This document shows positions 6,875 through 7,261 of a DNA stretch of 10,664 nucleotides, piece by piece. Origin of the DNA: a virus. Lineage: Duplodnaviria; Heunggongvirae; Uroviricota; Caudoviricetes. The stretch covers positions 1 through 10,664 of the IMG/VR virus record IMGVR_UViG_2675903575_000010; one strand, 5' to 3'. A model generated the notes under the pieces. The model searched no databases, was not told where the DNA came from, and worked only from the letters and a program-made list of their open reading frames with translations. The position numbers and the translations under genes were made by a program. Each line of letters opens with the position of its first letter. Position 1 is the stretch's first letter.

Positions 6875-6960
6875 ACGGGTCCTCCCGATGGAGTGGCCTT
6901 GCCACGGGGCGGGAGCATCGCGGAAAAAGGCTGGTTTTTGCATTTTCATGGCGGCGGCAG
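6871..6960 (+). other. cos-like site, copy A (cosQ/cosN-like; candidate cohesive-end 12-mer GGGCGGGAGCAT at 6907-6918)
   Basis: TTTTACGGGTCCT..CACG GGGCGGGAGCAT CGCGG is 47/53 identical to copy B and matches the lambda cos layout recalled from memory. The downstream part (GGTTTTTGCATTTTCATGG) resembles the lambda cosB-proximal sequence but with a roughly 9-bp insertion (AAAAAGGCT). Confidence 0.55.
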
Positions 6961-7136
6961 CATGTGTGATAATTTATTGATAATTAAAAAATATTTCCGT
7001 TTTCACCTGTACAATATTTTTTTCGCCCTGTCATTAGACCAGTTTGTAATTAATTGAAATATATAAATAAATCCGTTTTTCACCTGCCAGGTGGAGTTGC
7101 CAGTGTCAAAACGTGTTCAGATGGCGGGATATTTAT

Positions 7137-7159
7137 GCCGGATTTTCTCCGGCTTTTTT
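7137..7159 (+). terminator. Rho-independent terminator inside the intergenic region between cos A and the capsid operon
   Basis: Perfect stem GCCGGA / TCCGGC, loop TTTTC, followed by TTTTTTG. No annotated ORF upstream of it within this intergenic region. Confidence 0.5.
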
Positions 7160-7261
7160 GTGTCTGAATCTGACTAATCTGTTTTCATGATAGAAATATA
7201 TTTATCTACCACTTTTATCGATCAATAATGCGCGCAGTTTAGTCAGTAAGAGGAAGTTACT

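Follow-up and report, generated by a model that had tools for sequence, protein, structure and literature searches.

What is the role of an AT-rich gap that lies between the ssb gene and the capsid operon of a phage satellite, and that holds two direct repeats, an inverted repeat and a terminator with no reading frame to terminate? The stretch of DNA analysed here, 10,664 nucleotides long and referred to as the window, is an Escherichia coli PICI-type phage satellite with the gene order int, alpA, primase, ssb, protease/capsid fusion gene and terS. Its best match in E. coli, strain UTAK-5 (99.6% identity), adjoins tRNA-Pro, and the locus in that strain carries genes for an integrase, an AlpA-type regulator, a primase and Ssb, a ClpP-protease/major-capsid fusion gene and a small-terminase gene. 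Pfam and PHROG scans agree with the gene assignments for the island, and the order integrase-AlpA-primase-ssb-capsid-terS is the layout of Gram-negative phage-inducible chromosomal islands (PMC6092414).

The gap spans 425 bp (6837-7261), from the ssb stop at 6836 to a 69-codon gene at 7262-7471, and is present in full in 163 of 5,426 complete E. coli genomes. A preliminary description was right to call it AT-rich (33-39% GC across 6950-7250) and too short in giving it 340 bp. That description saw in the gap a possible short non-coding RNA, R-site-like binding sites for a small terminase, or activator sites for the capsid operon. The positions that it gave for both repeats, the inverted repeat and the terminator were all four exact when checked directly against the sequence. 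The repeats are as follows.

6997-7009, plus strand: Repeat 1, CCGTTTTCACCTG; its core CACCTG (7004-7009) is the conserved cos +98 site described below
7073-7086, plus strand: Repeat 2, CCGTTTTTCACCTG; its core CACCTG (7081-7086) is the conserved cos +175 site, just 5' of the phage terS start

The inverted repeat, CACCTG-C-CAGGTG, occupies 7081-7093. The direct repeat unit is longer than first described: it comprises 40 nt (6970-7009 versus 7047-7086), with 73% identity between the copies and a spacing of 77 bp, and in each unit an AT-rich, IHF-like part precedes TTTTCACCTG. When the 425-bp gap was shuffled 2000 times, 202 of the shuffled sequences (about 10%) contained an exact 10-mer repeat. 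With at most one mismatch, TTTTCACCTG occurs four times in the window against 0.92 expected, and two of these matches are at 53-62 and 6373-6382. The repeat by itself is weak evidence; it is conservation across genera that gives it meaning.

The gap contains a putative cos site shared with cdtI-type phages

A sensitive DNA search of phage genomes aligned positions 6907-7110 of the window with bases 1-204 in the records of phages Tritos and cdtI (90-91% identity), and in the same search the similarity to phage HannyBb began at 6876. The phage-like stretch begins at the cohesive end and takes in the first seven codons of the gene for the phage small terminase, a DUF1441 protein; the homology stops near 7109. 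In cdtI, the ATG of terS is at record position 185, corresponding to 7091 in the window, and the large terminase gene comes next. Base 1 of the cdtI record (GGGCGGGAGCGT) aligns on 6907; the record is marked circular, so that its base 1 was chosen by the depositors and need not be a mapped end, but the match to lambda base 1 supports the placement. Three elements could be placed by these alignments.

6877-6906, plus strand: cosQ-like segment and left half of the cosN region, with GGGTCCT at 6877-6883; alignable to the final 30 bases of lambda and kept in 59 distinct cdtI-type phage sequences
6907-6918, plus strand: cosN, predicted to leave a 12-nt cohesive end, GGGCGGGAGCAT; base 1 of lambda (GGGCGGCGACCT) and of the cdtI and Tritos records falls here
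7091-7109, plus strand: vestigial 5' end of the phage terS, with GTG at the position of the phage ATG

Because of this homology to the starts of phage records and to the ends of lambda, we think it quite probable that a complete lambda-type cos site, made up of cosQ, cosN and a cosB that includes both repeats, occupies 6877 to about 7109 and presumably functions in packaging. The cosQ element, GGGTCCT, is present about 30 bp 5' of cosN and is conserved in phages and islands. The whole phage-like stretch is colinear in 59 distinct phage and 19 island sequences, copies that are only about 10% diverged between phages and islands and cannot, on their own, separate functional from neutral bases.

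In the phages, the cognate terS lies directly downstream of cos. The island keeps only seven codons of it, the frame of which is not conserved: the islands differ by a 1-nt indel near 7106 that changes the reading frame of the stub, which is thus not coding. The missing cognate terS is expected for a satellite that uses the terminase of its helper. The segment would have been captured along with the first seven codons of the phage gene, which are now non-coding. Moreover, islands of the window's type and cdtI-type terS genes co-occur in the same genomes or samples (e.g., loci L009 and L062, or L010 and L058).

On one 44.6-kb contig (IMGVR_UViG_2609460219_000007; loci L011 and L069), the first capsid-operon gene of an island and a cdtI-type terS are about 8 kb apart. 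This may be a satellite embedded in a helper prophage, as in PMC10111431.

The repeats fall on conserved positions of cosB in nine genera

Homologues of the DUF1441 protein, down to 45% identity, were aligned, and the alignment was used to fetch their loci, with one genome per species. In 30 loci with the box found next to cosN, the 6-mers CACCTC, AGGTGA and CACCTG were enriched 16.5-, 12.4- and 9.9-fold, respectively, between the box and terS relative to the flanking DNA. A colinear alignment with the window was obtained for sixteen cos regions that precede a DUF1441 terS gene, drawn from nine genera (Escherichia, Scandinavium, Yersinia, Rahnella, Rosenbergiella, Providencia, Proteus, Morganella and Xenorhabdus), and in this alignment conserved blocks stand in otherwise diverged AT-rich DNA. 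Besides the two repeats, the following elements were assigned.

6919-6969, plus strand: CGCGGAAAAAGGCTGGTTTTTGCATTTTCATGG, the box adjoining cosN, and a degenerate first site, CAGCATGTG, which reads CAGCAGGTG in other genera; from the cross-genus alignment
6970-6982, minus strand: IHF consensus at cos +64, counterpart of lambda I1, TATCAATAAATTA (WATCAANNNNTTR)
7029-7033, plus strand: TGTCA at cos +123, remnant of the TGTCACCTC site of other genera; an invariant column block in the cross-genus alignment
7047-7059, minus strand: second IHF-like element, with one mismatch to the consensus, in the AT-rich part of repeat unit 2

The conserved blocks of the 16-region alignment begin with an E-box-like hexamer at cos +55, followed by the IHF consensus YAANNNNTTGATW at +64 (11 of the 16 regions). 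An E-box-like hexamer is again found at +98 in 12 regions, where the core is reversed in other genera (GAGGTG or CAGGTG versus the CACCTG of the window) and the equivalence rests on position. A TGTCA(CCTC) block follows at +122 to +125, then CACCTG at +174/175 in 14 of the 16 regions and, at +187, the ribosome-binding GAGGTG. In the phages, the ribosome-binding region of terS overlaps the last two of these (+175 and +187), the conservation of which could partly reflect translation signals. The inverted partner in the window, CAGGTG at 7088-7093 (about +182), is near the minus-oriented GAGGTG of other genera (+187), an approximate match, and the cross-genus GAGGTG columns themselves fall on GAGTTG (7094-7099). 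Only two perfect matches to the IHF consensus exist in the window, one in the cosB of this site, cos A, and the other in the cosB of an inverted cos, cos C. Both are about 50-60 nt from their own cosN and in the same relative orientation.

The preliminary description had made its readings depend on whether the repeats were conserved in related elements, and conserved they are, with their cores at +98 in 12 and at +174/175 in 14 of the 16 regions. At the level of sequence, the segment has the composition of a cosB, with repeated sites at +55, +98, +125 and +175 and an IHF site at +64. Quite probably, the two repeats are intact terminase-recognition elements of the R type, each preceded by an AT-rich bending site of the IHF type, to which the small terminase is predicted to bind.

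Judged by title or abstract, the literature containing DUF1441 is not about cos sites, and no paper on a DUF1441-type cosB was found among it; as far as these titles and abstracts go, the site map appears to be undescribed. For phages with DUF1441-type small terminases, it would be a first outline of cosB at the level of sequence, and it offers concrete sites to mutate.

In phages of Providencia, Proteus and Morganella (loci L147, L150, L164 and similar, at about 770-800), the +174 site, CACCTGACAG, is complementary to the ribosome-binding GAGGTG of terS. This pairing could form a hairpin in the late mRNA that masks the ribosome-binding site. Phages of the E. coli cdtI type lack this complementarity.

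The sites are probably read by the small terminase of the helper

The cdtI small terminase, BAF63334.1, is a DUF1441 protein that matches phrog_141 (small terminase) with E = 4e-65. The small terminase of the island, in contrast, is encoded at 9589-10131 and shares 36% identity with lambda Nu1 along its entire length. Its identity to the DUF1441 small terminase is only 20%, over 46 C-terminal residues, and no similarity to the DNA-binding end of the cdtI protein was detected. Its gene is directly downstream of another cos site, cos B (9406-9460), the cosN-proximal sequence of which is lambda-like. Solved structures offered no usable match for either of the two small terminases. Since the island terS codes for a Nu1 homologue, unlike the cdtI protein, and follows a different cos, we predict that the sites are probably read by the DUF1441 small terminase of the helper phage, and we regard the island's own Nu1-like small terminase as an unlikely binder of the cos A repeats. 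The suggestion of R-site-like terminase sites beside cos A was therefore sound in substance, as the repeats are inside a cosB shared with phages and their positions are conserved across genera; the Nu1-like protein proposed as their binder, a homologue of lambda Nu1, is probably wrong.

During growth of the helper, the DUF1441-type small terminase, together with host IHF, would bind the cosB sites on concatemers of the island. The bound small terminase would then position the large terminase for a nick in cosN (6907-6918), and the island DNA would be packaged. A previously unexplained gap would in this way become a defined, predicted packaging signal, with cdtI-, Tritos- and HannyBb-type phages as the probable helpers.

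Possibly, the repeats have instead been retuned for the Nu1-like small terminase of the island, or for a hybrid with that of the helper, as with Rpp, which would lead to preferential packaging of the island. The island does encode a small terminase, Rpp-type redirection is known in E. coli PICIs (PMC6739421), and the bases flanking the cores are not those of the phages. The flank 5' of the Repeat 1 core is TCTG or TCCG in 18 of 19 island sequences versus TCTC in phages (L043 keeps TCTC), and that of Repeat 2 is GTTTTT in most islands versus GATTTT in phages, changes that make the two copies more alike. However, the CACCTG cores are the same as in phages, and flanking differences common to nearly all islands may simply mark one ancestral capture. 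Moreover, the natural partner of the island protein, as a lambda Nu1 homologue, is cos B, directly 5' of its gene. We consider such retuning highly improbable, and recognition by the DUF1441 protein of the helper is the reading that we keep. A 'concerted' CCG change in both repeats was also considered as an adaptation and was rejected: CCG is found only in the window and in the near-identical L006, and the other islands have CTG, TTG or TGG.

The terminators bracket the cos insertion

The preliminary description had drawn attention to an 'orphan' terminator at 7137-7159. The gap has two terminators, whose origin was traced with a scan of 51 related islands and a direct alignment.

6853-6874, plus strand: T1, intrinsic terminator directly 3' of ssb; GCCGGA-ACAA-TCCGGC, then TTTTTT; -14.5 kcal/mol, z = -6.5; conserved in sister islands
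7137-7159, plus strand: T2, intrinsic terminator at the right border of the cos insertion; hairpin GCCGGA-TTTTC-TCCGGC (7137-7153), then TTTTTTGTG; a near-duplicate of T1

The T2 hairpin has six pairs, five of them G-C, followed by TTTTTT (-10.6 kcal/mol, z = -3.6), and it is reported by the consensus terminator scan. That scan misses T1 although its energy is -14.5 kcal/mol, likely because A-U pairs extend its stem into the T run. T1 and T2 share the exact 12-mer TCCGGCTTTTTT.

In the cos-less sister islands L013, L022 and L015, the ssb stop is followed by a single terminator, GAAGCCGGAGCAATCCGGCTTTTTTGTGTCT, and then by the capsid-operon leader. This terminator is at -127 to -105 from the first capsid gene, and T2 of the window is at -126 to -109. 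Relative to the cos-less islands, the window has an insertion of 285 bp that consists of the cos segment and a second copy of the terminator; of the ancestral flanks, the 5' one is retained at T1 and the 3' one at T2. Aligned in this manner, the terminator is not truly an orphan: the ssb terminator is present twice, once on each side of the cos insertion, and T2 is one of these copies. These alignments identify T2 as the putative module-boundary terminator of the replication genes, duplicated around the insertion. It would stop transcription that leaks through T1 and cos, and the capsid operon would stay under its own conserved leader, provided that T2 terminates as predicted.

T2 is found in 17 of the 18 distinct sister-island sequences with the window's cos type and is lost in the divergent L043, so that it is not indispensable. 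Its stem and loop vary little (loops TTTTC, TTCTC and TTTTA, one G-U change, one stem extension and no compensatory change), and the divergence is too low for covariation to show. A terminator 3' of cos as a universal feature of the islands was discarded, as L004 has none by the scan and L043 has lost T2.

Could the terminator end a small non-coding RNA of about 180 nt, with a start near 6980 and an end at 7137-7159, that acts on packaging or on capsid expression? T2 is a good terminator, and a relaxed scan found an extended -10 element, TGTGATAAT, at 6965-6973, which would place a start near 6980; most distinct island sequences carry this element, at a place where the phage consensus is TTTGGTAAT. 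That place, however, is a variable spot which corresponds to the degenerate first terminase site of other genera. The tool scan found no sigma-70 sites in 6700-7400, and the relaxed promoter scan gave 6 matches, where shuffles gave 3.7 +/- 2.0. No significant folding was seen outside the terminator hairpin (z = -1.6 and -1.0), and the candidate RNA matched no Rfam family. The covariation analysis across related islands that had been proposed as a check yielded no compensatory pair, with 0 of 40 predicted pairs showing compensatory changes in an alignment fold of 18 islands. In addition, the same terminator is the plain ssb terminator of the cos-less islands. We accordingly abandon the short non-coding transcript, which we judge quite unlikely, and keep T2 as the putative boundary terminator of the replication genes.

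A search of the whole window against Rfam at a permissive threshold returned only spurious eukaryotic miRNA and snoRNA matches, none of them credible. The best, to the plant miRNA MIR821 (E = 6e-4, far under the gathering score of the family), was outside the repeat/terminator region, at 5926-6105. Dense repeats of the TGAACAG / GTTCACC type occupy these positions, directly 3' of the primase gene, and probably form the replication origin.

The capsid operon keeps its leader with or without the cos site

Downstream of T2, two elements were delimited by comparison with the related islands.

7160-7261, plus strand: conserved leader of the capsid operon, kept with or without the cos insertion
7262-7471, plus strand: first gene of the capsid operon, 69 aa, phrog_4934 (E = 3e-30), with relatives in 51 loci at 53-99% identity

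The conserved blocks of the leader include AATCTGTTTTT, GATAGAAATA, TTTATCTACCACTTTT and GATCAATAATG. A weak sigma-70 candidate was found there by the relaxed scan only, with TTTATC at 7201-7206, a spacing of 17 nt, AATAAT at 7224-7229 and a start near 7236. That the leader has only a weak candidate of this kind suggests that its promoter is activator-dependent.

The repeats were themselves proposed as activator sites for the capsid operon, that is, as operators for AlpA or another regulator of the island. They do sit 5' of the operon, and the lack of a strong sigma-70 promoter for it makes an activator plausible. However, the repeats are wholly missing from the sister islands L013, L015 and L022, in which the leader and first gene are the same. 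The phages, on the other hand, share the repeats, with terS directly after them. Moreover, a terminator stands between the repeats and the operon, and the repeat motif, with at most one mismatch, does not recur near alpA. Because the leader and first gene persist in sister islands without the repeat region, such as L013 and L022, we reject the proposal, to which we attach almost no probability, and the repeats remain best described as putative elements of cosB.

It also seemed conceivable that an antiterminator of the Q or AlpA type acts on the terminator, with the capsid genes expressed by regulated read-through from an upstream promoter, as in lambda pR'-tR'. In lambda, the terminator of pR'-tR' is just upstream of the late operon, and the window, with a terminator just 5' of a late-type operon, has a similar layout. 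The island encodes an AlpA homologue, and tandem terminators would make read-through strongly dependent on a factor. Neither the tool scan nor the relaxed scan, however, found a promoter with an adjacent binding element between T1 and T2. The conserved leader at 7160-7261, which is independent of cos and 3' of T2, is a likelier site for the promoter of the capsid operon, and L043, without T2, still has this leader. Read-through of this kind is therefore unlikely, and we favor initiation in the leader.

A hypothetical protein is annotated in RefSeq on the minus strand at 7202-7384, where it overlaps the plus-strand reading frame at 7262-7471. The latter matches phrog_4934, with relatives in 51 loci, which makes the minus-strand annotation look spurious.

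Comparison with known cos sites and satellites

In its predicted layout, cos A parallels the R3-I1-R2-R1 order of lambda. Both have cosQ and cosN segments that can be aligned with each other, and both have repeated short sites and an IHF consensus between cosN and the start of the small-terminase gene. The positions are R3 at 53, R2 at 109, R1 at 155 and the Nu1 start at 191 in lambda, and +55, +98, +125 and +175 with a start at +185 in the window's cos type. The sites differ in sequence, being TCACCT(G/C), with TGTCA, in the window's cos type versus the CGTTTCC type in lambda. They also differ in that the cognate small terminase is a DUF1441 protein (phrog_141) and not Nu1, and in that the island has no terS at this place, with seven codons only.

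EcCICFT073 carries two functional cos sites, cos1 and cos2 (PMC6092414, PMC6739421). Like EcCICFT073, the island of the window is an E. coli PICI in which multiple lambda-like cos sites follow the replication module and the cosQ and cosN segments resemble those of helper phages. The cosB of EcCICFT073 differs from that of its helpers, and this PICI depends on Rpp in complex with the small terminase of the phage; in contrast, the cosB of the window is about 90% identical to a phage cosB. A further difference is that the island of the window encodes a Nu1-type small terminase.

The PICI 11capE and its helper share a 258-bp cos segment at 90% identity (PMC10111431). The likeness to 11capE and its helper prophage 50icd resides in about 250 bp, at about 90% identity, common to satellite and helper at the cos position; the phage family and the cosB type are different, and the island of the window is at tRNA-Pro, not inside a prophage. 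As cited in a preprint (bioRxiv 10.1101/2022.09.08.507074), cos-type SaPIs (SaPIbov5) and P4 also carry the cos of their helper. In these satellites, as predicted here, the helper's own cos sequence and terminase are used, although in other hosts, with other phage families and with no sequence relationship. That satellites carry the cos of a helper is already established, and the gain here is descriptive and not conceptual.

The island has three cos sites

Three lambda-like copies of cosQ/cosN were found in the island, with different cosB regions.

6869-6949, plus strand: cos A, cdtI-type; carries the repeats in its cosB
9406-9460, plus strand: cos B, lambda-like; just 5' of the island's Nu1-like terS
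10287-10359, inverted: cos C, mEp460-type; 94% complementary to cos A over 54 nt, with a cosB that matches mEp460- and phi458-type phages at 86-88%

We raise, tentatively and with considerable doubt, the idea that the segment from T1 through cos to T2 is a portable, terminator-bounded cos cassette that satellites add or swap to change their range of helpers. Three helper families could then package the island, and the island-specific base changes beside the two CACCTG cores could further bias packaging towards it. Two related islands, L004 (4040-4470) and L005 (4040-4415), have the same backbone with other cosB variants at the position of cos A, which suggests that cos segments are exchanged among islands. 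In L005, the capsid gene is of the lambda-E type and the hairpin 3' of cos is a different one.
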